This document shows, in pieces, positions 31,233 to 46,801 of a DNA stretch of 64,000 bases. The notes under the pieces are model-generated. The model worked only from the letters and a program-made list of their open reading frames with translations, ran no database searches and had not been told where the DNA came from. Origin of the DNA: an uncultured Lachnospiraceae bacterium (GTDB taxonomy: Bacteria > Bacillota > Clostridia > Lachnospirales > Lachnospiraceae); assembly GCA_947625775.1 (NCBI GenBank), contig CANQPM010000016.1:5963-69962 (forward strand), in the 5' to 3' direction. Position 1 is the first letter of the stretch. The number at the start of each line of letters is the position of its first letter. The translations under genes were made by a program, and so were the position numbers.

Positions 31233-32297
31233 TTACATCTTTTCTGATATATATTCCTCTGAAACATCATAATTTTGGGCAATCAGGCGGACTATTCTGT
31301 CGTCTGGCATTCCTATGCTCCGCAGCATGTCTATGCTGTGTTTTATGTCATTTTCGCGGGCTTTATCATAGCCTTCGCTTATACCGCGTTCAAAGCCTTC
31401 ACTTATGCCGCGTTTATGTCCCTGCTCAAAGCCCTCACTCACGCCGTATTTGTGTCCGCGCTCAAAGCCTTCATTTATGCCGCGTTTATGTCCGCGCTCA
31501 AAGCCTTCACTCACGCCACTTTTATGTCCATCCTCGTAGCCTTCATTATATACAGTCTTTTTATGCAATTTTTCATCAAATTCGGTAAGCAGCATATTCG
31601 TCACCTCACTCTTGCATTTGACTAAAATATCTGCCAAAATATCATCTTTTATACAGTCGTCAATTGCTTTGCCTATCGCATCCTGCATAGTGTATTTGCT
31701 TTCGATATATTCATTTACTTTCGCTATGAAGTATGAATAATCATGCAGCCGTCGGCAACTGTTAAGCAGTGCGTTGTTATGACCGTAATTGATATTAAGC
31801 ATTGTCGCCCTGCATTCAAGCACAGGCTCGGCAGACAGCTTCGGGGTAAACGCATCCGACAGCCGTAAAATCATCTCATCAGGGTATTCATCCCTGCCAT
31901 TATAAAATATGATGAACTGTGGCGTCGGTAGCTTGACAAGACTTCTGCCGTATATGTCAAGATTATGCTGTTTGATATATCCCTCATACAGTCTTGAAAA
32001 ATACATCAACCCGCGAACCGGCATATTTGGGTTGAAAGTTGACTGATGCTCGTACAGGTTAAGCGTTGACGAGATTATGAATGACATATCATTTTTCATT
32101 GACATATATATGACATCCTCAAGCGTCGTGATTTCAAGCTCGTCCGGGTTTGTATAGCTTGTGTGGTTTACCGCGTTGTACAGGTCAAGCAAGTCCCTTT
32201 TGTCTGCGAATACCCTCTGAAACAGCCTGTCCTTGTGTTTTTTGACTATAGGCAGATGCCTGAATATTTTGGTGATATTAAGTTTTTCTGTTTTCAT
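31233..32297 (-). CDS. Rpn-family recombination-promoting nuclease / PD-(D/E)XK putative transposase, paralog 1
   Basis: YhgA/Rpn-like N-terminal nuclease core (DRLFQRVF, DVIYMSMKNDMSFII, LNLYEHQST, MPVRGLMYF). The C-terminus has 12-aa EGFERGHKRGIS-type repeats. Confidence 0.75.
   Translation of the reverse strand: MKTEKLNITKIFRHLPIVKKHKDRLFQRVFADKRDLLDLYNAVNHTSYTNPDELEITTLEDVIYMSMKNDMSFIISSTLNLYEHQSTFNPNMPVRGLMYFSRLYEGYIKQHNLDIYGRSLVKLPTPQFIIFYNGRDEYPDEMILRLSDAFTPKLSAEPVLECRATMLNINYGHNNALLNSCRRLHDYSYFIAKVNEYIESKYTMQDAIGKAIDDCIKDDILADILVKCKSEVTNMLLTEFDEKLHKKTVYNEGYEDGHKSGVSEGFERGHKRGINEGFERGHKYGVSEGFEQGHKRGISEGFERGISEGYDKARENDIKHSIDMLRSIGMPDDRIVRLIAQNYDVSEEYISEKM
31349..31555 (-). repeat. 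in-frame 36-bp tandem repeat (12-aa EGFERGHKRGIx units) inside Rpn paralog 1
   Basis: Units at 31385-31420, 31421-31456, 31457-31492 and 31493-31528 plus partial flanking units. There are fewer units in paralog 2 (about 32821-32920) and in the truncated paralog 3. Confidence 0.85.
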
Positions 32298-32684: not shown

Positions 32685-33671
32685 TTATAAGTCCCTGAGT
32701 GTGCTCATTTTTTGCATTATATATTCTTTTGATATATTATAGTTTTCGGCAATCAAGCAGATTATTCTGTCGTCAGATATTCCCATGCTCCGCAGCATAT
32801 CTATACTATGTTTTATGTCATTTTCGCGGGCTTTATTAAAGCCTTCATTTATGCCGCGTTTATGTCCGCGCTCAAAGCCTTCACTCACGCCACTTTTATG
32901 TCCATCCTCGTAGCCTTCATTATATACAGTCTTTTTATGCAATTTTTCATCAAATTCGGTAAGCAGCATATTCGTCACCTCACTCTTGCATTTGACTAAA
33001 ATATCTGCCAAAATATCATCTTTTATACAGTCGTCAATTGCTTTGCCTATCGCATCCTGCATAGTGTATTTGCTGTCGATATATTCATTTACTTTCGCTA
33101 TGAAGTAGGAATAATCATGCAGCCGTCGGCAACTGTTAAGTAGTGCGTTGTTATGCCCGTAATTGATATTAAGCATTGTTGCCCTACATTCAAGCACAGG
33201 CTCGGCGGACAGCTTCGGGGTAAATGCATCTGACAGCCGTAAAATCAGCTCATCAGGGTATTCATCCCTGCCATTATAAAATATGATGAACTGTGGCGTT
33301 GGTAGCTTGACAAGGCTTCGAGCGTATATGTCGAGACCATTTTGTTTGATATATCCCTCGTACAGCCTTGAAAAATACATCAGCCCGCGGACTGGCATAT
33401 TTGGGTTGAAAGTTGACTGATGCTCATACAAGTTTAGCGTTGATGAGATTATGAAAGACATATCATTTTTCATCGACATATATATGACATCTTCAAGAGT
33501 CGTGATTTCAAGCTCGTCAGGATTTGTATAGCTTGTGTGGTTTATCGCATTGTAAAGGTCAAGCAAATCCCTCTTGTCCGCGAATACCCTCCGAAACAGC
33601 CGATCCTTGTGTTTCCTGGCTATCGGCAGACGCCTGAATATTTTGGTGATATTAAGTTTTTCTGTTTTCAT
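32685..33671 (-). CDS. Rpn-family recombination-promoting nuclease / PD-(D/E)XK putative transposase, paralog 2
   Basis: Near-identical to paralog 1 over most of its length. About 200 nt of upstream non-coding sequence is also duplicated (32298-32497 vs 33672-33883). Confidence 0.75.
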   Translation of the reverse strand: MKTEKLNITKIFRRLPIARKHKDRLFRRVFADKRDLLDLYNAINHTSYTNPDELEITTLEDVIYMSMKNDMSFIISSTLNLYEHQSTFNPNMPVRGLMYFSRLYEGYIKQNGLDIYARSLVKLPTPQFIIFYNGRDEYPDELILRLSDAFTPKLSAEPVLECRATMLNINYGHNNALLNSCRRLHDYSYFIAKVNEYIDSKYTMQDAIGKAIDDCIKDDILADILVKCKSEVTNMLLTEFDEKLHKKTVYNEGYEDGHKSGVSEGFERGHKRGINEGFNKARENDIKHSIDMLRSMGISDDRIICLIAENYNISKEYIMQKMSTLRDL

Positions 33672-34265: not shown

Positions 34266-34571
34266 TTATAAGTCCTTGAGTGTGATTAATTTTTGCATTA
34301 TATATTCTTCTGATATATTATAGTTTTCGGCAATCAGGCAGACTATTCTGGCATCAGATATTCCCATGCTCCGCAACATATCTATGCTGTGAATGATATA
34401 ATCTTCACGGACTTTATCAAAGCCCTCACATACGCCATTTTTATGTCCATCCTCGTAGCCTTCATTATACACAGTCTTTTTGTGCAGTTTTTCATCAAAT
34501 TCAGTAAGCAGCATATTTGTCACCTCACTTTGCATTTGACTAAAATATCCGCCAAACCGTCATCCTTTATA
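34266..34571 (-). pseudogene. truncated Rpn-family nuclease paralog 3 (C-terminal remnant only)
   Basis: Homologous to the 3' third of paralogs 1/2, including the repeat region. It carries a 1-nt deletion relative to them, and homology stops abruptly at 34571. Confidence 0.7.
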
Positions 34572-37391
34572 TAATTCATTTTTATATTTCTCTTGTTCTC
34601 TATATAAATTAATTGCATCCATAAAATCCTCAATGGACAGATTTCTTAATTCACATACAGCATTTAAAAAAGCGCATGGTAAAATATCATATTCTTCTTT
34701 TGAAACTATTGATTTTATTTCTTCATATTCTGTCAAACCACATTGTTTTACTATGTCTGTATTGTATATCATGTTTTCTTTACAATCAAACATATTAACT
34801 GTCATGTTTGTCGGAGGCATAGTCAGAATTTCTTCAGCAAAAACATTAAGATGATATCGGCTTATCGGCATATAATATTTGGTATTATGTCGTACGATAT
34901 CATAATTAATCAGCAGCTTAGAACACACTTTTCCGTTTCTGACACAAGCAAAATTATGACCAATATATTTATTTACATTGTCTTTATCTATCCACACATA
35001 ATGATTTTCATCTACATCAAAAAGAGCGTGTGACTTTACAATGGATAGCATTTTATGGTCATTAAATATTAAATTAATAATATCAAACTCCTTTTCGCCA
35101 GAGTTCTCATGAACATTTGCAATAACCTTCTCACTACGCAAAGTGCCGATATAATGGTCAAAGACCATAACATAATCATTGACCTTTATCTTTTCAACCT
35201 CACAATATGAACCATCCGCCATAAGAATTCTTGTATTTGGAGCAAAACAGCCATCATTAACCGTCTTAGAGTCCTTATATGTTGATGTAGAACGATAACT
35301 CTTATTTTCTTTATAATAATTATCTTTTTCATAACGAGATTTTTCTCTTTGACAAGCTGCTAATCTTTCTTCTACTATTGGTGACGATTGCTTTTCAAGT
35401 GAACGTTGATAATTCTTTATCGCTTTGTCTAAATCAATCGCTACACCCATGCCAAATTCATACATATTTCCTTTGCAATATAAAGCAAGAGCACTTTTGG
35501 AATTTGATAACAAACTCATCGCCCCCGACAAATCTTCATTTAAATTAAACAAAACAATGCCTAATATCTCGCTGTAATGATTTGCATTATACATTTCGCT
35601 AATAAGATAACGGCATAGTTGACATATTACATGTCCATTTTCTATCATTTTTTCATTTGCAGGAATTTGAGAAAATGAAGAAAATCTCGATTCAAACACA
35701 ACATCAACAATTTTTCCTATTGCAGGCGCATATTGATTTGCCGCCGCAATTTTATAATACGTGAATTCACGATCTGAAAGATCTGCCAAACGCCTGCGAT
35801 TTTTACATTTTTTTATGTCTTCCTCTGCCAAAATCATACATGCCTCAGGGACTAGAGAATTTGCTAATGTTTTTAAGTTAACGCCTCTCCAACCGCGCTT
35901 ATACATATCAACTAATTTATCGCCTGCAAGCGCATAACCTTTGTTTAAGCTTTCTTGAAGAACGTGTTGTCTCTCATCTTCTGATAATGTTAATGCCTTT
36001 GCATACAATTCTTTTCCAGTATAGCAATAATCCCCCAATGCCTCTACATAGAGTTTTAATTTCGTATCTTCTATTTCATCTGGTTCATTTATAGCAATTA
36101 ACATTTTTGCCTTTTCCCATTCGCTTATGTCTATATCAATAGCATCAAATTTTGTACGTACGCCTTTGCCTTTTGTTGACTGTACATACGCATTTATAAG
36201 ATCGTAATTATCGTATCCATATGAATACAATTTCGAAAGAATCTTCTTTCCTGTTCCTTTTGTAAAAGACCTACACCGAAACATAGATAAAAACATATTA
36301 TCAAAAATCTTTCTTGATACTTTTTTCCCTGTAGTAAACGTATCTTTCAGATCGTTACAAATCTGTGTTATCAATTTTTCTATATATTTTAATTGGGTTG
36401 ACAGATTCTCCTTTTCTTTTTCAAGGTTATTTTCTCTCTTCTTTTCATATTCTCGTATTGTCTGTAATGTATTGTCGTTACTGTCACCAATGCGAACTAT
36501 ATCACCCACAACCTCTTGTAAAGCAGCCTTAGATTGCTTAAGCTGCGTTTCATAAAATTCCATAATTTGTGTTTTGATTGAAACATATTCTTCCCCAAAC
36601 CCATACAAAATAGGCCGGACATTTTTCTTCACAAAGTTTTCTATATCATTAAATACTACTCTATCAAACTTTTGCAATCGTGAATCATTAAGCGTATCCG
36701 TAAAAAGTTTCTCGCTTAATAATAGAGAATCTCCTTTTCCTATTTTTCTTCTTTCGATAGTATCTAGTCCTTCTTCATCAATATACACTAGTTTTGCGGA
36801 TAACACTCTAGAAAATAATTGCTCAGCATTCGAATATACATTGTCTGCAATAATGCAAAGAGATGAATCTTTCAGTTTAGAATGAACAATTACAAATTGA
36901 ACCACTTTATTCAACGCAATTTTTCTTTTTCCACTCTCGATAATCAAAAATTTAAATTCATTAAAACTTAAGGGTATTCTTATATTTGCATAATTTATTA
37001 TCTCAATCGAATCAGTGCCATCAGTGTCAAAAATTATAAAGGGAATTTGCGTATATAATTTCTTAAACGACGAAATATACTCCTTATTTTCCATAAGAGA
37101 GCTGCATGCCTCAAATACTCTTGTAGTTATATGACAAGAAACACAAAGGCATTGTTTCCCGACTATTTCACTACACAAGTACAATGGTTCCATTGCGTTT
37201 AGCATATCTTCCGTCTTCTGAATAATATCCGAAGCATTCGGATACATAGAATGCTGAAGACTGCTGTTCAGTTCGGAATGAATTAGGGAATATAATTTAT
37301 TGTAATTATCTCTATTTTCACTTTCTCCAGGTAAGCTCTTGTTGCGCATAACTTTAGCAAGAATAGATAAATATTTAGATGCTTCTGTCAT
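34560..37391 (-). CDS. 943-aa protein: P-loop-less N-terminal region, coiled coil, Sel1/TPR-like repeats, C-terminal Hint autoprocessing domain (operon gene D)
   Basis: Sel1-like repeats (KGYALAGDKLVDMYKRG, YYKIAAANQYAPAIGK, ALALYCKGNMYEFGMGVAIDLDKAIKNYQRS). Hint blocks: DG|CFAPNTRILMADGSYCEVEKIKVNDYVMVFD, KSHALF, YYMPISRYHLNVFAEEILT. Confidence 0.7.
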   Translation of the reverse strand: MTEASKYLSILAKVMRNKSLPGESENRDNYNKLYSLIHSELNSSLQHSMYPNASDIIQKTEDMLNAMEPLYLCSEIVGKQCLCVSCHITTRVFEACSSLMENKEYISSFKKLYTQIPFIIFDTDGTDSIEIINYANIRIPLSFNEFKFLIIESGKRKIALNKVVQFVIVHSKLKDSSLCIIADNVYSNAEQLFSRVLSAKLVYIDEEGLDTIERRKIGKGDSLLLSEKLFTDTLNDSRLQKFDRVVFNDIENFVKKNVRPILYGFGEEYVSIKTQIMEFYETQLKQSKAALQEVVGDIVRIGDSNDNTLQTIREYEKKRENNLEKEKENLSTQLKYIEKLITQICNDLKDTFTTGKKVSRKIFDNMFLSMFRCRSFTKGTGKKILSKLYSYGYDNYDLINAYVQSTKGKGVRTKFDAIDIDISEWEKAKMLIAINEPDEIEDTKLKLYVEALGDYCYTGKELYAKALTLSEDERQHVLQESLNKGYALAGDKLVDMYKRGWRGVNLKTLANSLVPEACMILAEEDIKKCKNRRRLADLSDREFTYYKIAAANQYAPAIGKIVDVVFESRFSSFSQIPANEKMIENGHVICQLCRYLISEMYNANHYSEILGIVLFNLNEDLSGAMSLLSNSKSALALYCKGNMYEFGMGVAIDLDKAIKNYQRSLEKQSSPIVEERLAACQREKSRYEKDNYYKENKSYRSTSTYKDSKTVNDGCFAPNTRILMADGSYCEVEKIKVNDYVMVFDHYIGTLRSEKVIANVHENSGEKEFDIINLIFNDHKMLSIVKSHALFDVDENHYVWIDKDNVNKYIGHNFACVRNGKVCSKLLINYDIVRHNTKYYMPISRYHLNVFAEEILTMPPTNMTVNMFDCKENMIYNTDIVKQCGLTEYEEIKSIVSKEEYDILPCAFLNAVCELRNLSIEDFMDAINLYREQEKYKNELYKG

Positions 37392-37396
37392 AATGT

Positions 37397-38662
37397 TTAT
37401 ACCTCTTCTCCAAAGAATTCCTTAATATCTTGATTAATATTTCTGATAATCGAGTCATATTGCTTTAATAAATTGTTTAAAATATAACTATCTTGATTTG
37501 CTTTCCCCCATAACTTAGTCAATGATCTTATGTCCATTATTTGATTGGATTTAGAAATATAAGTAAATAATTTTTGTGCAGTATCTTGAGATTGCTTTAT
37601 TGCAAGTTTAATTGCCTCGCTCATTTCATTTTCTACATTTCTAAATTCTGAAATAATATCATTTTGCCTAACATTACCACTAATTGCGTGATTAAAAAAT
37701 TTGCAGATTTCATTGGCGCCATATTCTTTTTTCTCGTTCGCTGAATAAGCTGTTATCCCAAAGCAAGCGATTCCTGTTTTACTTATTGTTTCTCTTGCAA
37801 TATTTATTATTTTTGAAATTTCCTTTTGTGGTTTCAAATCTGCTTTCGTGAATACTATTAAAATTGGCGTCTTTATTCTTAAAGATTTAATAAATTGTAT
37901 GTCATCTTCTGTTATTGCGCCTGAATCTATATCAATTAACCAAACCAAATAGTCCGATATGCTTAATTGTTCAAATGCTTTCTCTCTATCTGAAATCACT
38001 TTTTTAGAATTATTATCTTCATCATATTTTGTATATCCGGGTGTATCGAGTAATGCGATTTCTTCTGGCAATGAATATTCATTTGATTCAATAATAATAC
38101 TATCTACAAATGCAGGGAATCCAATACCATATACTGTATCAAATTCATGAGCCATTGCGTTTAAGGCTTCTGTACTTATTTCTGTCGAATATCCATAAAC
38201 ACTATTTGCGTAAATCCTTTCTTCGTCTGATTTAATAATGTATGTCGGAATAGCTGTTGTAGTTTTCTGACCTACAGGAAGCTTATCTCCAATTCCGGAA
38301 ATTGTATTAATAAATTTTGATTTTCCCGCACTAACGCTGCCCCCAAAGCTTATAACAACTTTATCATGTAGCTTTTGAATTTTTTTTTGCTCTGATAACC
38401 TCGAACATAAATCCAAAAATTTTTCATAAATTAACATCTCATTTTTTATAGTTACTTCTGAAAATAACGAAAACAAATAGTTGATTTTTTTTTCAATTCT
38501 TCTTCCAAAATATGTAGATGAATCTGATTTATTCTTTATAAGCTCTGAAATCAATTCTATCGCCTTATCTTCATTGGCAATATACATATTTTCATCTGGT
38601 ATTTCTACTTCACTAAACAAATCATCCAAATTTATTTCATCATCTTTCACGTCAAATGACAT
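37397..38662 (-). CDS. dynamin-like/TRAFAC GTPase, 421 aa (operon gene C)
   Basis: G1 GGSVSAGKSKFIN, G3 LLDTPGYTKY, G4 FTKADL, helical C-terminal half; GAGGTGAAGG RBS. Confidence 0.75.
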   Translation of the reverse strand: MSFDVKDDEINLDDLFSEVEIPDENMYIANEDKAIELISELIKNKSDSSTYFGRRIEKKINYLFSLFSEVTIKNEMLIYEKFLDLCSRLSEQKKIQKLHDKVVISFGGSVSAGKSKFINTISGIGDKLPVGQKTTTAIPTYIIKSDEERIYANSVYGYSTEISTEALNAMAHEFDTVYGIGFPAFVDSIIIESNEYSLPEEIALLDTPGYTKYDEDNNSKKVISDREKAFEQLSISDYLVWLIDIDSGAITEDDIQFIKSLRIKTPILIVFTKADLKPQKEISKIINIARETISKTGIACFGITAYSANEKKEYGANEICKFFNHAISGNVRQNDIISEFRNVENEMSEAIKLAIKQSQDTAQKLFTYISKSNQIMDIRSLTKLWGKANQDSYILNNLLKQYDSIIRNINQDIKEFFGEEV

Positions 38663-38688
38663 TAACCTTCACCTCTCATAAAAATAAT

Positions 38689-38720
38689 GGCGTCTACCTG
38701 TTCCAATCCAGATAGACGCC
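38689..38720 (-). promoter_or_regulatory. intra-operon hairpin with U-rich tail between GTPase genes B and C
   Basis: Stem GGCGTCTA/TAGACGCC. On the coding (minus) strand it is followed by AUUAUUUUUAU immediately before the RBS of gene C. Confidence 0.4.
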
Positions 38721-38739
38721 TAATTTAATGCTGCAGGAA

Positions 38740-40893
38740 CTACATGTTTGCTTTCATTTTTTTTAATATTTGCGCAAATTCGCGGTATTCATTGATATAT
38801 TTTTCTTTTTCTTTAACTTGTTCTTGCAGTTTTTCTAATTCTCCGCAAAATTCTTTTTCTATCTGATCAGCAAAATGTAATGCTTGTTGTTTAAGCGTCT
38901 CTGTAATGCCTTCTAAGGAAGAAAGTAATTGTTCTGCAATATCATCCTCGATCTTATCTAGCAATTTACTCTGTAAATTAGTAAGCTTATGTATATCTTC
39001 GTTTTTGGCATAACCACTCTTAAACCTGGTTTCAATTTCATCTATATATGGTGTATGGTCGACAGAAATATGAGGAACCGATATTTTATCTAATACATTT
39101 TGTAGTGGTAATAAAATATCATTTTCGTCAAATTCTTTTTGACTTTGGGTAAATGCATTCAATACAATCTCCTTAATATCTCGCACAAATTTTTCCTTAT
39201 TAAAAATATTTTCAAACTCATCATTAACATAAGCAAGGCATTTCGCTGAATACATTTCTATGTTTTTAATTACAGAAGAAGTATCCGCAATATTCTCAGT
39301 AACAACAATATGTACAATTTCCCTTTTCAAACCAAAAAATCCCGTATGTTTAGTTTTATCTTCATCGTGTGACGCTGTTCTTACTGCAAAATTCTCGTGC
39401 TGTTTCATTTCAATTATCAACTGTGGCAATATCTGCTGCACTTTTTTATCACACTGTATTGCTGCGTTATCAAAAATATTCTTTAATTTATCTCTGGAAG
39501 AATCAATAATATCCATAATATCGTTGGATCTCTGTTTTAGTTCTTCTGCAGAAGTTGTTTCAAGTTTCATTCTACTTGATACAGTTTCCTGCAATATTTT
39601 CTCTAAAATACTTAGATGATTATCTCTCGCAGTATTCAGTAAATCAGTATTCTTACCTTCGATAATCTCTATCTTTTTGTCCAACACTTCATTTAATGCT
39701 ATTTTTACCTTATTAATTCCTCCTAATGAAGCTAAATAATCATCTTTAAAATCATGAAATCTTCCATGAAGATTCTCATAAACTTTTCTTTCATTCTCAT
39801 CCAAAGGAATATTGCCTTTGCTTTTTTTATCAATTGAAAAACATGTAGACGAAGCAAACAAAACAGTTTTTGGGTTCATTTTTTTTAATATTTCTATATG
39901 TTTGCTGCTGCTTTTAGCCTGCTCAAGATTCGTTCTGAACTGTGACTTATAACTATCTAATGCCTTTTTATATGCCACACCGAAATTTTCATCATTTTCA
40001 TTAAGAATACCAGAGTCAAGTTTGCTTCCGACAACAAGGATATTTTGAACCCCGGCGCTAGGGAGGCTGCTAGCCATAAGTTTTACAGTGTTTGAATCCA
40101 TAAATTGGCTACACGGTGATAACAGGAGCACTACATCACAAGAACGTAAAAATTGTTTCGTTATAATTCCTCGTGATACAATAGGATCATTTAACCCTGG
40201 CGTGTCAACAATTTCAAAATCCTTCACATAGGGATTATCTACTTGTAATTCCACATAACTAACAATAGGCGTATAATGCCCATTGGCTCCCACATAATCA
40301 TTGAGTTTTTGTATAATGTTTCCTTCGATTTCATCAGTAGAATCAAGTTTTTCTAACAAAGTTGGATCCTTAGCCATGCTTGTTAGTTCTTTAGCTCCTC
40401 GCTGATTCTCTGATTTACATATAAAGTGTGTTGCATACTCCTGTCTGCTCATTGGAGGAGTAATTCTTTGATTTTGACAATACTCAGCATACTCTTTATC
40501 TAAGGCTTCATCATATAAAGCCGAATGTTTTTTGATTGTTTCCCAATCTTCAGTTGTATAAAAATGTATGATTGCTTTTGGCGTTTCGGAATATGTAATT
40601 TTAGTCAATGCCGCTGTCATCGGCGTAGCTGCCTTTGGTAAATAGTCTTCTCCATCAAAAATACATGCATTAAGGAATGATGATTTACCCGCTTTTACTG
40701 CACCTACTATTCCTATACTAAGCTTTCTTGAATCATTCTTCGCGGCTTCAATATCACGCTTGAGCGCAGAAGTAACCTGTTTGAATTCAATTAATTTTTC
40801 TGAATCGAATAATTCTTCATGGCTCTCTAATGTTGTCTTAACCTTTTCGGCAAAATCAAAATATTCGTTTGCTTTTTCATAATCAATTGCCAT
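38740..40893 (-). CDS. dynamin-family GTPase, 717 aa (operon gene B)
   Basis: G1 GIVGAVKAGKSSFLN, G3 IVDTPGLNDP, G4 VVGSKLD, then a long helical stalk-like C-terminal region. The start overlaps the stop of gene A by 11 nt. Confidence 0.8.
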   Translation of the reverse strand: MAIDYEKANEYFDFAEKVKTTLESHEELFDSEKLIEFKQVTSALKRDIEAAKNDSRKLSIGIVGAVKAGKSSFLNACIFDGEDYLPKAATPMTAALTKITYSETPKAIIHFYTTEDWETIKKHSALYDEALDKEYAEYCQNQRITPPMSRQEYATHFICKSENQRGAKELTSMAKDPTLLEKLDSTDEIEGNIIQKLNDYVGANGHYTPIVSYVELQVDNPYVKDFEIVDTPGLNDPIVSRGIITKQFLRSCDVVLLLSPCSQFMDSNTVKLMASSLPSAGVQNILVVGSKLDSGILNENDENFGVAYKKALDSYKSQFRTNLEQAKSSSKHIEILKKMNPKTVLFASSTCFSIDKKSKGNIPLDENERKVYENLHGRFHDFKDDYLASLGGINKVKIALNEVLDKKIEIIEGKNTDLLNTARDNHLSILEKILQETVSSRMKLETTSAEELKQRSNDIMDIIDSSRDKLKNIFDNAAIQCDKKVQQILPQLIIEMKQHENFAVRTASHDEDKTKHTGFFGLKREIVHIVVTENIADTSSVIKNIEMYSAKCLAYVNDEFENIFNKEKFVRDIKEIVLNAFTQSQKEFDENDILLPLQNVLDKISVPHISVDHTPYIDEIETRFKSGYAKNEDIHKLTNLQSKLLDKIEDDIAEQLLSSLEGITETLKQQALHFADQIEKEFCGELEKLQEQVKEKEKYINEYREFAQILKKMKANM

Positions 40894-42583
40894 TTTTTAT
40901 CCTCCCCAATTCATCAATCATGTGCTTGACAACAGTTATATCATCTACGATATTCCTTTTATACTGCTCAAATTCTTGAATTTTCTTCTCTTTTTTATTT
41001 TGCGCATCAGCAATATTTGTCTTAATACTTTCAAGCTTGTCCGCAAGTAGCTTTTCATATTCATCAAGTACCATTTTTGTTGTTGCTTCAACGTTTTGTC
41101 TTATTTGTGGATACATTTTATTCATTATCTGTGGCACCACATTATTAACAAATCTATGTTTGGTTGCTTCAGCATCACTTTCACCAAACATTTTTTGCAA
41201 AAGATTTATTACATCTGGCAAGAGAATAATCGCAATTTCAAGCCATGGCGCAATAATATCTGTTGCAATGGCTGCAATTCCGGCAATAACATGATAAAGT
41301 GTTGGATTCTTCTTATTCCTGTTATGTTTTTCCATACCTTTCGTTTCAAAAGTGCCTTCCACAATAATATCTTTAATATTATTAGCAATATTAACTGCAA
41401 CTGATGATAGATCCACTCCTTCGCTTCCATTCACTAAACCTGTAAAATCAAGAGAATCTGTAACACTGTCAATCTGTCTAATGCTTATATCCTTCATTGA
41501 GGCGAGCATGATAGGTCGAACAGTTTCAATAATAATTGCTTCTGCTGCAGCTTGATTTCCACTAAGAAGAGCCTCAACAACAGACTCTGCTCTTGCTATC
41601 AATGTACTTCTAACTCTATCTGTAACTTCTTGTACTGTATTGTCAAGTTCTTCCTTTGCCTCTTCTCTTTTTGTTTCAAAAGTATTTGTTAATTGTTCCT
41701 CAAGTCTTGAATAAACTGCAATATCTGCGTCTAAATCGAACGTATCTAAAAAAATCTTTTTCTGAACAACAGAGAGTATTTTTTCTGAACTATCTAATTC
41801 AGATTTTAACATTTTTACCATCACTTTATCAAAAGCAGCTTGTGCATTAAACGAAGATATTATGTCAATTAGCTTATTAGCTATATCTTCATCTCTTTTG
41901 GATACTGTGTAAACATTATAATTAAATCCATGCGTTTCTAAGGTATCTCTGGCAGATTTGGCTATACTCTCAGCGGTATTAGTAGTAATCTTATCGCACT
42001 TGTTGATTAATACAGCAATTTGAGTGCTGTAATTAGATATTTCCTGAATAAATTCCAATGTTGTTTCGTCAATACCGCCCTTTTCCTGATCAACAACAAC
42101 TAAATATGCGGATCCGATTCCTATATAGCTTGCCAACGCCTTAGCATGAGTTTCAATATTGGCATCAAATCCCGGTGTATCAACAATTGTAAAATCACTA
42201 ACCTTTTTCAAATTCTCCGAGCAAATTCTATATACTAAATGATCATATTCTTGTACGGAATATTCTTTTCCAAAGTCAATCACTGCTTTGTTTCCAGAGT
42301 TGTCATATGCAAAAGCCGATTCTGTTTCATCATATACTAGTTCCGTTGCTATTGCAGTTTGTGGCATCTGTGCTTCTTTTAGAAAATTAGGTCTGCCAAT
42401 CAACATATTGAGCAAAGAACTTTTACCTGCGTTAAAATGTCCAACAAGCATAAGCTTAATATCAAAATTATCTCGAAGGTTTTCTATTCTGTTCAATGAT
42501 TTTTCAAAATCAAACCCTTCATAATGAGAATATATTTCTTCAATTTCTTTAATCATTTTATCATAAGCGCTTTTGTTAACCAT
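40883..42583 (-). CDS. bacterial dynamin-like GTPase with hydrophobic membrane paddle, 566 aa (operon gene A)
   Basis: G1 VGHFNAGKSSLLN, G3 IVDTPGFD, G4 LINKCD. Hydrophobic segment LYHVIAGIAAIATDIIAPWLEIAIILLPDVINLL (aa 428-462). Coiled-coil C-terminus. Confidence 0.8.
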   Translation of the reverse strand: MVNKSAYDKMIKEIEEIYSHYEGFDFEKSLNRIENLRDNFDIKLMLVGHFNAGKSSLLNMLIGRPNFLKEAQMPQTAIATELVYDETESAFAYDNSGNKAVIDFGKEYSVQEYDHLVYRICSENLKKVSDFTIVDTPGFDANIETHAKALASYIGIGSAYLVVVDQEKGGIDETTLEFIQEISNYSTQIAVLINKCDKITTNTAESIAKSARDTLETHGFNYNVYTVSKRDEDIANKLIDIISSFNAQAAFDKVMVKMLKSELDSSEKILSVVQKKIFLDTFDLDADIAVYSRLEEQLTNTFETKREEAKEELDNTVQEVTDRVRSTLIARAESVVEALLSGNQAAAEAIIIETVRPIMLASMKDISIRQIDSVTDSLDFTGLVNGSEGVDLSSVAVNIANNIKDIIVEGTFETKGMEKHNRNKKNPTLYHVIAGIAAIATDIIAPWLEIAIILLPDVINLLQKMFGESDAEATKHRFVNNVVPQIMNKMYPQIRQNVEATTKMVLDEYEKLLADKLESIKTNIADAQNKKEKKIQEFEQYKRNIVDDITVVKHMIDELGRIKNGN

Positions 42584-42890
42584 TTCTTTTTCCTCCTTCT
42601 TGCTTGTGGTTCTTAAAAATCATTAAATGTTCTTTTATTCAACACAGTGTGTTAGATTTCTGACAATATCTGATTGCCTTCCAAGAATTTTCTGCAATTG
42701 ATGCTGGGAAATCCACATCAAGCCCACTGATAAACTCTTGTATTGCCAGTTTTCCAATGAAATGTTTTGATATAGTAGTAGGTATTGGCGGCTTTTAAAT
42801 GTATTTTGCTTTGTTGTGCATAATAAATCCCCCTATCTTTTCATAAATTGTTATTTTATATTATATTTTATCATATTTTGTTTTAAATTT

Positions 42891-43010
42891 GGTATGCTGG
42901 CAGCAGACTTTGCTAACTTTTTTCAAAACTACAGTTATATATTTAATAGAAAAAACAAAATTTAATAAAAATTTTATGAAATATGCCCAAAAGTCTGCTG
43001 GAAGCATACC
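42891..43010. promoter_or_regulatory. 21-nt inverted repeat pair in the divergent promoter region
   Basis: GGTATGCTGGCAGCAGACTTT (42891-42911) pairs with AAAGTCTGCTGGAAGCATACC (42990-43010), 19/21 complementary, flanking an AT-rich 78-nt spacer. Confidence 0.45.
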
Positions 43011-44875: not shown

Positions 44876-46801
44876 TCACAGCGAAAATATTAGCTTCGCA
44901 ATCATCGCTGCGACAGCTATTCCCGCGGGAATGGCAAGCTTTTTAATTGCTCTGATGATTTTTTTATTCACTGATTTTCTGCGTTTGCGCTTTTTACCCG
45001 TGTTTTTATTTGCGGCATTGTCCGCGCCTGTTTTTCTGCTCCTGCTGTTTTCAGACGTGCCTATCTTGGGCGCTGGGCCTTTCCTGCGCTGCAGCTCGTC
45101 TTCCTCTGTCTTTAGCTGCGGCTTTTTATATATTGCAAGCGCACTCTGCCACCGATTCCGAAGTTCATCGCGCTGTTCGGAGAGGGCAAGCGACTTTTCG
45201 TTTATTTCAGCGACTGTTTCCTCGGTATATTTACCGCTTAAAACGGGCGCGATGATGTCAAGCCGCTCTATGCCGCTTTCAATCGTGTTTTTGCTGTAGT
45301 GCAGACCTTGAAAATGCTCCATTCTGCGCTTTAGCAGCGTGAGATCCTCGCTTATCTCGTCAGTGTCGCCTGTGCCGACCGCGCTCTTTATGCCTTTGCG
45401 CGGGTTGAGGCAGACGAGGTGCCAGATATTGCTTGTCTTGTCTGGATTATCCTTGAATATGCGGATGGCGCGTCCGCGCATCTGGTTGCTTAGCATAAAC
45501 GAGCCGACAAAGCTTGCCAGTATCAGCGAATTAACGCATGGAGCGTCCCACCCTTCGCCGAGCAGCGATTTAGTTCCGATAAGCGCCTGCATATACCCCG
45601 CCGTGAAAATGTCCGTGACAGCTCCTGTCAAAAAATGAGCATTACCGACAGCCTTGACGCTCAGATACTCAGTTTCTGGAAGTGATCCCATAGCGGAAAA
45701 AGTGACCTTACCCTCATTGCCTATAGCATTCAAAAGCGCTTCCTTTGCGGCGGCGGGAATGACTACAAGCGTACCGCACAGTACGCCGAGCTTTAGCCCG
45801 TCAGCGTCAAAGGTGCGGCGCAGCTGTTCAAAAAACGGCAGTACGCCGAGCGCGTTTACATCCTGCGTTTCGTCGCCGACTGCGCACTCATAATCCCTTT
45901 TGATGTAGTCAGTGAGTATCAGCAGGCGGAGGTCTTTGCCCATCGCGGAGTATTCGTGTGCTACAATGCTGCGTATGCTGTTTGCCTTGCCGATTGAGTT
46001 TGCGAGAAGCTTTTTGGACTGCTCTGTATTGCTTTTTTTAAGCAGACGTTCTACTTCTGATTCTTCCTCGGCGGTAGGGTAGTTAAAATATATATAGTCC
46101 TGATGCGGGCAAAGGCTGCCCTCCTTTACAAGCTCGGGGACAGTGATTTCGACATCGATTTCGCCGCACATATTTGTGTAGCGTTTCCAGAGTGACGGCG
46201 TGGAATCATAAGGCGGCGTGGCGGTAAGTGCGATAACCTTTAAGCTGCCGACAGCGCTTTTCACTTCCTCAAGCGCCTTCCACCATTCAGTGCGCAGGTG
46301 ATGGCATTCGTCAAGGCACAGTACGCCAATCGCATTGTCCTTTAACATGGCAAAGATGTCAAAGTCGGAATAGTCCTCTTTATCGCTGGGGGAAACGCCG
46401 CTCACTATATCATCATTATCATCATCTGCTTCGGTATTGGGGGTATCTGCAGCTTTAAGGCGTTTGACTGCGCTGTGCAGCGACTGATACGTAACGATAG
46501 TGATAACGCGAGGCTCTTTCAAATCCTGCGATAAATAATCTCCTGCATTTAAGCCGTCGATAAGAAATGCCTCCGCAATCCTGTCAACCCACTGCTCCCG
46601 TATAGTGATGGACGGCGCAAGCACAAGGGCGGGCTGCCCTAAGCGTTTTATAAGCTCGATTCCGAGTGTAGTCTTTCCCGAACCTGGAGCCGCTACGATA
46701 TGCACGCGCCCATCGTCAAGGTATTTCATTGAATTTTCAATCACCCGCGCCTGATAATCACGCCAAGTGCCTTTGAAGCTTAAAATTCTGTCGTAGTTCA
46801 T
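44876..46801 (-). CDS. SF2 DEAD/DEAH-box (ResIII-type) helicase with basic linker and C-terminal transmembrane anchor
   Basis: Motif I AAPGSGKT, motif II LDECHH, motif III LTATPP, motif VI QMRGRAIR. The C-terminus is KKRKRRKSVNKKIIRAIKKLAIPAGIAVAAMIAKLIFSL. Confidence 0.8.
   Translation of the reverse strand: MNYDRILSFKGTWRDYQARVIENSMKYLDDGRVHIVAAPGSGKTTLGIELIKRLGQPALVLAPSITIREQWVDRIAEAFLIDGLNAGDYLSQDLKEPRVITIVTYQSLHSAVKRLKAADTPNTEADDDNDDIVSGVSPSDKEDYSDFDIFAMLKDNAIGVLCLDECHHLRTEWWKALEEVKSAVGSLKVIALTATPPYDSTPSLWKRYTNMCGEIDVEITVPELVKEGSLCPHQDYIYFNYPTAEEESEVERLLKKSNTEQSKKLLANSIGKANSIRSIVAHEYSAMGKDLRLLILTDYIKRDYECAVGDETQDVNALGVLPFFEQLRRTFDADGLKLGVLCGTLVVIPAAAKEALLNAIGNEGKVTFSAMGSLPETEYLSVKAVGNAHFLTGAVTDIFTAGYMQALIGTKSLLGEGWDAPCVNSLILASFVGSFMLSNQMRGRAIRIFKDNPDKTSNIWHLVCLNPRKGIKSAVGTGDTDEISEDLTLLKRRMEHFQGLHYSKNTIESGIERLDIIAPVLSGKYTEETVAEINEKSLALSEQRDELRNRWQSALAIYKKPQLKTEEDELQRRKGPAPKIGTSENSRSRKTGADNAANKNTGKKRKRRKSVNKKIIRAIKKLAIPAGIAVAAMIAKLIFSL

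Follow-up and report, generated by a model that had tools for sequence, protein, structure and literature searches.

A C-terminal Hint domain with a conserved helical tail, predicted to autoprocess, in a putatively GTPase-dead dynamin-like protein of a Lachnospiraceae operon

The window analysed here, a whole stretch of 64,000 nucleotides from contig CANQPM010000016.1 of an uncultured Lachnospiraceae bacterium (assembly GCA_947625775.1), carries on its minus strand an operon of four genes. Three of them encode dynamin-family GTPases, the dynamin-like proteins DLP1, DLP2 and DLP3, and the last, gene D, encodes a protein of 943 amino acids. An earlier note had assigned positions 34821–35249 to a Hint autoprocessing domain at the C-terminus of D and had proposed that this domain cleaves its own N-terminal junction and does not splice. 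Read from the N- to the C-terminus, D consists of a putative degenerate dynamin-like domain, Sel1 repeats, a linker, the Hint domain and a helical tail. These parts are distributed as follows, with the basis of each assignment in brackets (ORF, open reading frame; AF2, AlphaFold2).

34560..37391, minus strand: gene D, 943 amino acids, last of the four genes (ORF)
36072..37391, minus strand: D residues 1–440, predicted dynamin-like fold (AF2 and Foldseek)
35322..36071, minus strand: D residues 441–690, helical, with Sel1-type repeats that are clearest at about 610–690 (family profile)
35250..35321, minus strand: D residues 691–714, Ser/Thr/Tyr-rich linker ending in Asp-Gly714 (alignment)
34821..35249, minus strand: D residues 715–857, Hint domain (Pfam, family profile, AF2/Foldseek)
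34563..34820, minus strand: D residues 858–943, helical tail of 86 residues (AF2, profile matches)

Codon arithmetic puts Cys715 at 35247–35249, His788 at 35028–35030 and Thr857 at 34821–34823, by which the interval given for residues 715–857 is exact. The strings quoted for the domain are likewise all present: DG followed by CFAPNTRILMADGSYCEVEKIKVNDYVMVFDH, then KSHALF, and YYMPISRYHLNVFAEEILT followed by MPP. Three independent Hint-type Pfam models match D, and each of these matches begins at residue 715: Hom_end_hint (E 2.4e-5), Hint_2 (residues 715–856, E 1.6e-3) and Hint (E 0.054). The scores, 24.9, 19.2 and 13.5 bits, all lie under the Pfam gathering scores, and the single-sequence Pfam evidence for D is suggestive and not conclusive when taken alone. 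A relative of the domain in another protein (P0084) reaches 48 bits on Pfam Hint, for which the gathering score is 29.7 bits.

Family-level comparison agrees with these matches. A profile of the C-terminal 244 residues (700–943 in D), built from an alignment of 32 homologues and referred to here as A2, was compared with the PDB. It matched the Tetrahymena bacterial intein-like (BIL) domain BIL2 (6tmm/6y75) with an E of 1.3e-4 over profile positions 14–158, which is the entire domain, and the next matches were the PI-SceI/VMA inteins and Drosophila Hedgehog. The AF2 model of A2, which covers D residues 700–943, has a predicted local distance difference test score (pLDDT) of 89 and a predicted template modelling score (pTM) of 0.86, and shows a β-rich domain at model residues 16–159 followed by a helical region at 163–242. 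A Foldseek search of the PDB with this model gave 64 matches at E <= 1e-3, and all 50 of those listed are Hint domains. The best were the Hedgehog domain HhC (6tyy/1at0, E 3e-9), with a template modelling (TM) score normalised to the target of 0.77, and, in second place, BIL2 (6tmm/6y75), followed by the Mtu RecA mini-intein (target-normalised TM 0.81) and the DnaB/DnaE inteins. Taken together, HhC, BIL2 and the RecA and DnaB mini-inteins fall within a Foldseek E of 3e-9 to 1e-7 and a target-normalised TM of 0.76–0.82. As far as prediction allows, residues 715–857 of D are confirmed to form a Hint fold, in agreement with the earlier note. Among viral structures in BFVD, the best match to the model was a Gaeavirus protein (A0A3G5A239; 221 aligned columns, TM normalised to the query 0.63). 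This alignment outruns the Hint domain, and the Gaeavirus protein may therefore possess a tail-like extension too.

The residues expected of an active Hint domain were counted in two sets, 35 D homologues that carry the Hint domain and 39 diverse modules from other proteins. Cys715, His746 and His788 of block B are each present in 35/35 D homologues and 39/39 diverse modules, and Cys715 is also invariant in an alignment of 41 D homologues. His761, His847 and Asn849 are each invariant in the 35 D homologues and occur in 32, 34 and 37 of the 39 diverse modules, respectively. The residue that precedes the nucleophile (714, position −1) is Gly in 33 of the 35 D homologues, and among the 39 diverse modules it is Gly in 20 and Ser in 14. 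Phe716 follows the nucleophile in 34/35 D homologues.

To place these residues, the family hidden Markov model was aligned to the HhC sequence, which was checked against 1AT0. Cys1 of HhC aligns with Cys715 of D, and the HhC motif TPAH (69–72) aligns with Val785-Lys-Ser-His788. The earlier reading of block B as Ser/Thr-x-x-His is right about the conserved His788 and wrong about the register of the Thr, the position of which is occupied by Val785; this residue is Val in all D homologues. Overall, the alignments indicate that the residues needed for an N-to-S acyl shift at Gly714/Cys715 are fully conserved.

The other end of the domain is different. In D it reads EEILT857 and continues with Met-Pro-Pro, and there is no His-Asn. 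In the 35 Hint-bearing D homologues, position 857 is occupied by Thr, Ala or Ser, never by Asn; it is followed by Met or Ile and by the invariant pair Pro859-Pro860. The canonical intein terminus is thus absent, as had been claimed. Because the terminal Asn is missing, Asn cyclisation is excluded, and with it C-terminal cleavage or splicing. A canonical splicing intein was rejected on the same grounds, as D possesses neither the His-Asn nor a Cys, Ser or Thr at position +1. Both sequence and model support the view that the Hint domain of D is not a splicing intein and would be built for N-terminal cleavage at Gly714/Cys715. Five of the 39 diverse modules (P0083, P0088, P0120, P0123 and P0150) do carry an Asn at the position equivalent to Thr857, and in most of them Thr-Pro comes next (LN/TPN). 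Judged by their sequences, these Asn-ended modules, unlike D, might be capable of C-terminal cleavage.

The tail that follows the Hint domain is predicted with a pLDDT of 92–95 over most of its length in the A2 model, and neither Pfam nor NCBIfam has a model that covers it. It diverges like the rest of D: within the D family, the tail has a mean pairwise identity of 0.51, compared with values of 0.48–0.55 in the dynamin-like, Sel1 and Hint segments; the short linker has 0.45. Asn866, Phe868, Gly885, Tyr889 and Tyr908 are tail positions common to the wider family. The tail had been described as an 86-residue, Cys-containing segment; it is present and conserved, whereas its cysteine, Cys906 of a Leu-Pro-Cys motif, is conserved in the D family only (35/35 D homologues, 3/39 diverse modules). 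Cys906 was for this reason rejected as a second nucleophile of a general mechanism.

A search of 1.84 billion representative proteins with the A2 profile returned 4072 clusters at E <= 1e-3, of which the weaker ones may be Hint-only, 2210 at <= 1e-10 and 554 at <= 1e-30. The wider family was surveyed in the 150 best matches and 36 retrieved sequences. Almost all of the best 150 align over about positions 8–233 of the profile, that is, over the Hint domain and the tail together, and almost all are found at the extreme C-terminus, a few residues from the end at most, of proteins that range from 240 to 5645 amino acids. The N-terminal parts of the carriers are unrelated to D and include BspA-type leucine-rich repeats, Big_2 domains, Listeria-Bacteroides repeats, signal peptides, transmembrane helices and zinc ribbons, and the module is found on apparently extracellular as well as cytosolic proteins. 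The Hint domain and the tail are one conserved module, which occurs in at least hundreds of protein clusters behind varied N-terminal parts. Two giant proteins, P0091 (residues 324–555 and 1776–2000) and P0140 (319–545 and 1339–1576), contain two internal copies each. If both copies were active, these proteins would end up in several pieces.

The database search for D yielded 58 homologues, most of about 950 amino acids and with 40–99% identity to D. Six of them (P0051–P0055 and P0058), of about 840 amino acids, carry CFI_box_CTERM (NCBIfam NF041770) instead of the Hint domain and the tail, with E values of 2e-12 to 3e-18, over the cut-off. Model position 1 of CFI_box_CTERM is a Cys that aligns to Cys715. 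The first 700 or so residues of these proteins are common with D, and so is the four-gene operon (for example, locus L008 7257–9821). Using hhalign, no relationship was found between the CFI-box module and either the Hint domain or the tail (probability below 1%), a result that led us to reject the idea of a CFI-box variant that keeps a diverged tail. Only 2 extra proteins were found when the CFI-box region was searched alone, and literature searches for ‘CFI-box’ and ‘CFIATAA’ found nothing. The presence of two unrelated modules, both starting with Cys, at one and the same junction argues that this junction is a functional boundary and that the cysteine itself is probably the functional site. 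The swap also bears on the statement that the Hint domain is not inserted in a host protein, which held: the domain is at the C-terminal end of D, and its Hint-less homologues carry a different C-terminal domain and not a rejoined host, which sets aside a canonical intein insertion.

By fold and nucleophile, the D module belongs to the Hint superfamily, and the known systems that it would work most like are Hedgehog/Hog and the BIL domains. With Hedgehog and Hog proteins it shares (i) the Gly/Cys-Phe scissile motif, the block B His and a chemistry confined to the N-terminal junction, (ii) a conserved extension of 70–90 residues directly behind the Hint domain, which is predicted to be helical in D, and (iii) a location at the C-terminus of varied passenger domains. 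D differs from them in being bacterial and cytosolic, with no signal peptide. In addition, the Thr of the TxxH motif is replaced by Val, the general-base Asp by His761/Glu762, and D lacks the SCYA cysteine (C143). Its tail is not detectably similar in sequence to the sterol-recognition region, and no adduct is known for D.

The BIL domains (2LWY of Clostridium thermocellum; 6TMM/6Y75, BIL2 of Tetrahymena BUBL), one of which (6tmm, E 1.3e-4) is the best PDB match of the D profile, resemble the D module in that they cleave or ligate and are not selfish inteins, and in that the Hint domain resides in non-essential, variable bacterial proteins. To our knowledge, BIL domains terminate with Asn or Gln and are not obligatorily followed by a helical tail, whereas the D module has neither residue at its end and is always accompanied by the tail. 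Finally, large multidomain proteins, some of them with Sel1/TPR repeats, carry the pre-toxin HINT domains (PF07591) close to their C-terminus (PMC3482391), as D carries its Hint domain. D differs in that its downstream domain is conserved and not polymorphic, and in that it lacks a secretion signal, an immunity gene and a releasing Asn.

The 714 residues that precede the module had been described as the ‘Sel1’ part. Sel1 repeats are indeed present: the D family profile matches the Sel1-repeat proteins 6ork (E 3e-10), 8sxq and 1ouv in the PDB at profile positions of about 610–686, and the single D sequence has a weak match to Pfam Sel1. The description leaves out residues 1–440, for which a dynamin-like fold devoid of a P-loop is predicted. 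The AF2 model of this part (pLDDT 88.9, pTM 0.85) contains an α/β domain at about residues 80–260 and a long helical hairpin at 265–347, and the top 40-odd Foldseek matches in the PDB are nearly all members of the dynamin superfamily, with a probability of 1.0; they include BDLP (2j69, E 2e-5), MFN1/2, IniA, Vps1, dynamin-1 and MxA. The TM-scores to these structures are just 0.2–0.3, as would be expected for hinged multi-domain proteins. A comparison of the profile of residues 1–440 with those of DLP1, DLP2 and DLP3 by hhalign was not significant, and kinship at the profile level was set aside. The G1 motif GxxxxGK[ST], one copy of which is present in each of DLP1–DLP3, is absent from D, where residues 76–95 read EIVGKQCLCVSCHITTRVFE. 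D likewise contains neither a conserved G3 nor a conserved G4, the DTDG at residue 122 not being kept across the family, and Pfam Dynamin_N does not match D. A scan of D with NCBIfam models returned nothing relevant, and neither a secretion leader or signal peptide nor a hydrophobic membrane-binding segment was found in it. The linker between the Sel1 repeats and the module has a low pLDDT. On the strength of the model, we read D as a fourth dynamin-like subunit that is GTPase-dead and carries Sel1 repeats.

The operon would thus encode four dynamin-like proteins, one of them GTPase-dead. The three genes that precede D are as follows.

40883..42583, minus strand: DLP1, dynamin-family GTPase, 566 amino acids (Pfam Dynamin_N E 1.7e-14)
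38740..40893, minus strand: DLP2, dynamin-family GTPase, 717 amino acids (Pfam Dynamin_N E 6.7e-21)
37397..38662, minus strand: DLP3, dynamin-family GTPase, 421 amino acids, directly upstream of D (Pfam Dynamin_N E 1.2e-12)

G1, G3 (DTPG) and G4 were all found in DLP1, and both DLP2 (G1 GAVKAGKS) and DLP3 (G1 GSVSAGKS) have DTPG as their G3. Residues 436–462 of DLP1 form a hydrophobic, paddle-like segment with a hydropathy peak of 1.99. Several dynamin-like GTPases are also encoded together, on a horizontally acquired island, in LeoABC (PMC4159319). The D operon resembles LeoABC/Eleos in this regard only, whereas the LeoABC/Eleos systems, as represented by the PADLOC models, have no P-loop-less fourth member that ends in Sel1 repeats and a Hint or CFI-box module. 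The PADLOC scan gave weak LeoBC and LeoA matches to DLP1 and DLP3 with E values of 1e-11 or worse, the best being that of LeoBC to residues 11–218 of DLP1 (E 1.9e-11). As these matches are weak, not full-length and confined to the G domain, and as D has none, an assignment of the operon to Eleos/LeoABC was set aside.

Combining these findings, we propose that the Hint domain and the tail (229 residues) form one autoprocessing module, in which a Hint domain of the Hedgehog/BIL type is modelled as packed on a conserved tail. We consider it probable that the Hint domain catalyses the formation of a thioester at Gly714-Cys715 and that an outside nucleophile resolves it, which would yield two fragments and no spliced product. 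We infer the cleavage, the attacking nucleophile and the role of the cut in the operon as follows. Aided by His788 of block B, Cys715 would attack the carbonyl of Gly714 in an N-to-S acyl shift and give rise to the thioester. Without a terminal Asn, neither C-terminal cleavage nor splicing would follow, and the thioester would be resolved by water, by a thiol or by a molecule placed by the tail, which could position an acceptor in the way the sterol-recognition region does in Hedgehog. The protein would be irreversibly split into an 82-kDa pseudo-dynamin and Sel1 fragment that ends in Gly714 and a 27-kDa Hint-tail fragment (the masses calculated for a cut at Gly714/Cys715 are 82.0 and 26.9 kDa). 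Most likely, the cut would be a one-shot maturation or activation of the non-catalytic fourth dynamin-like subunit.

Several observations weigh against this mechanism. The Pfam scores of D are sub-threshold. The Val in place of the TxxH Thr could slow the acyl shift. Asp46 (D303), the general base for the attack of cholesterol in Hedgehog (PMC9163320), aligns to Glu762, right after the invariant His761, with an uncertainty of one residue in the register. No sequence similarity to the sterol-recognition region of Hedgehog could be detected in the tail; the Pfam Hint (PF01079) matches end near position 147 of the 213 positions of the model. Lastly, the PADLOC scan matched neither D nor DLP2, in addition to the weakness of its matches to the operon. 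The low scores and the Val of block B would also be at home in a Hint domain that is silent, that is, a structural or protein-binding module, for example one docking to the DLPs, in a protein D that is never cleaved; non-cleaving Hint-fold domains are known, and the Pfam model of one, AXH, weakly matches two D homologues. Such a domain appears improbable, given that D homologues down to 40% identity and unrelated carriers alike strictly keep Cys1, the His of block B and a small residue at position −1, a conservation that is hard to account for without catalysis, and that the alternative CFI-box module likewise opens with an aligned Cys.

A different fate of the same thioester is that the tail presents a lipid, an envelope molecule or a protein amine and the 82-kDa fragment becomes covalently tagged at Gly714, for instance as a membrane anchor, as in a Hog-like adduct transfer. 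The layout of a Hint domain with a conserved extension is that of Hedgehog/Hog (PMC9163320), the D-family-invariant His761 is located at or beside the position of the general base Asp46, and the top PDB match, 6tyy, happens to be the D46H variant. The tail is conserved as strongly as the catalytic domain, which would be expected for a reaction partner, and dynamin-like proteins act on membranes, for which DLP1 has a membrane-binding segment and D has none. These points are countered by a tail that is not homologous to the sterol-recognition region, has no known ligand, is acidic (isoelectric point 4.45) and displays no marked hydrophobic stretch. Furthermore, His761 is absent from 7 of the 39 diverse modules, and with both extracellular and cytosolic carriers one common acceptor is not obvious. 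On balance, adduct transfer seems unlikely, if worth bearing in mind, and a broader version of it, in which the module is a widespread bacterial Hedgehog-like self-conjugation unit whose tail recruits a specific acceptor (a membrane lipid, an envelope precursor or a protein amine) and that covalently couples the GTPase-dead D to a membrane or target and the CFI-box is a second, unrelated route to this end, is more doubtful again.

The two remaining readings make the tail a product and not a partner of the reaction. In polymorphic toxins, a HINT peptidase is placed directly before the C-terminal toxin domain (PMC3482391), and on this reading the tail of D would be a small effector that the Hint domain releases; a weak match to the Pfam PT-HINT model in one homologue (P0023, E 0.053; D itself has no PF07591 match) and the low-GC island that holds the operon, with other conflict-type genes nearby, point the same way. 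Downstream release, however, requires Asn cyclisation, for which D lacks the Asn. The tail is not polymorphic, its identity being like that of the rest of D, and is common to hundreds of unrelated proteins. D has no secretion leader, and no small immunity-like gene follows it among the ORFs of the window. With a tail that is not variable and a missing Asn, the polymorphic-toxin reading was rejected as highly improbable. Alternatively, the Hint domain could be excised and the 714-residue part joined to the tail, as in A-type BIL splicing or ligation. In the work of Dassa et al. of 2004, a subset of BIL domains reportedly spliced in the absence of a +1 nucleophile, and 6tmm, 6y75 and 2lwy rank among the best structural matches. 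This reading is the least credible of all: the terminal Asn or Gln is missing, an invariant Pro-Pro follows the last strand, and the tail is modelled with the Hint domain as a compact unit (pTM 0.86), which suggests that it is a part of the module and not an extein. Of the readings weighed here, we thus favour thioester formation at Gly714-Cys715 followed by attack of an outside nucleophile.

Known activities of Hint domains comprise splicing (inteins), cholesterol modification (Hedgehog) and toxin release. The earlier remark that no self-cleaving module was known in a dynamin-like GTPase operon stood up to full-text literature searches, which found no report of Hint combined with bacterial dynamin-like proteins or their operons; when Hint, autoproteolysis and surface proteins of Firmicutes were searched for, polymorphic-toxin papers were all that came up. 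In the module, a catalytic fold already known is combined with an obligatory, uncharacterised partner domain, and the system context is new. What is new is a very large family of bacterial proteins whose Hedgehog-like Hint domain always comes with a conserved helical extension that lies outside the Pfam and NCBIfam models. Hedgehog owes its adduct chemistry to this architecture of a Hint domain plus an extension, and the family offers a tractable bacterial system for questions of recruitment by such extensions. In the literature searched, the predicted self-cleavage chemistry would be the first in a dynamin-like machine, and it would be on a seemingly GTPase-dead subunit. The natural swap of Hint and tail for the CFI-box provides a ready genetic test of the C-terminal module and may point to what the CFI-box does. 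Were the cut to be triggered, the operon would contain an irreversible protein switch, of relevance to phage defence, mobile elements and protein engineering.

The identical four-gene order was found in a Lachnospiraceae metagenome-assembled genome (MAG), an Acutalibacteraceae MAG and two metagenome contigs, and further matches came from Phascolarctobacterium, a Catonella MAG and a bin labelled Bacteroides. This taxonomic spread fits horizontal transfer. In the window, the operon occupies a stretch (about 34500–43000) with a G+C content of about 30–35%, put at about 31% around the four genes, compared with 45–50% in its surroundings. The data are consistent with a horizontally acquired operon. 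No matches to D were found by tblastn in 72,556 plasmids and 50,697 phage records. On one metagenome contig (L009, 8342–13700), the operon adjoins genes for PrgI, a VirB4/TraG-like ATPase and a CHAP/lysozyme-like hydrolase, that is, conjugation genes, which suggests that this copy is carried by an integrative conjugative element. In the Catonella MAG (L007, 4000–13000), the operon is split into many short ORFs, and its D homologue has 63% identity; the breakup reflects either pseudogenisation or frameshift errors of the assembly.

No tRNA genes were found anywhere in the window. The operon is flanked by a ResIII/DEAD helicase gene (44876–46801, minus strand) and several ORFs that match no family. 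Within the operon, the 77 nucleotides that separate the stop of DLP2 from the start of DLP3 contain a strong terminator-like hairpin (38689–38720, minus strand) with a 12-bp stem, 7 G-C pairs and a T-rich tail, which suggests that transcription is partly terminated there or that the DLP3-D half is regulated separately. Directly downstream of D are three tandem Rpn/YhgA-like (Transposase_31) paralogues, all on the minus strand (31233–32297, 32685–33671 and 34266–34535). One of the three is a fragment, and the first ORF after D is an Rpn-like gene fragment. The paralogues vary in the copy number of a 36-bp repeat (31384–31547 and 32838–32921) that encodes units of the EGFERGHKRG type.

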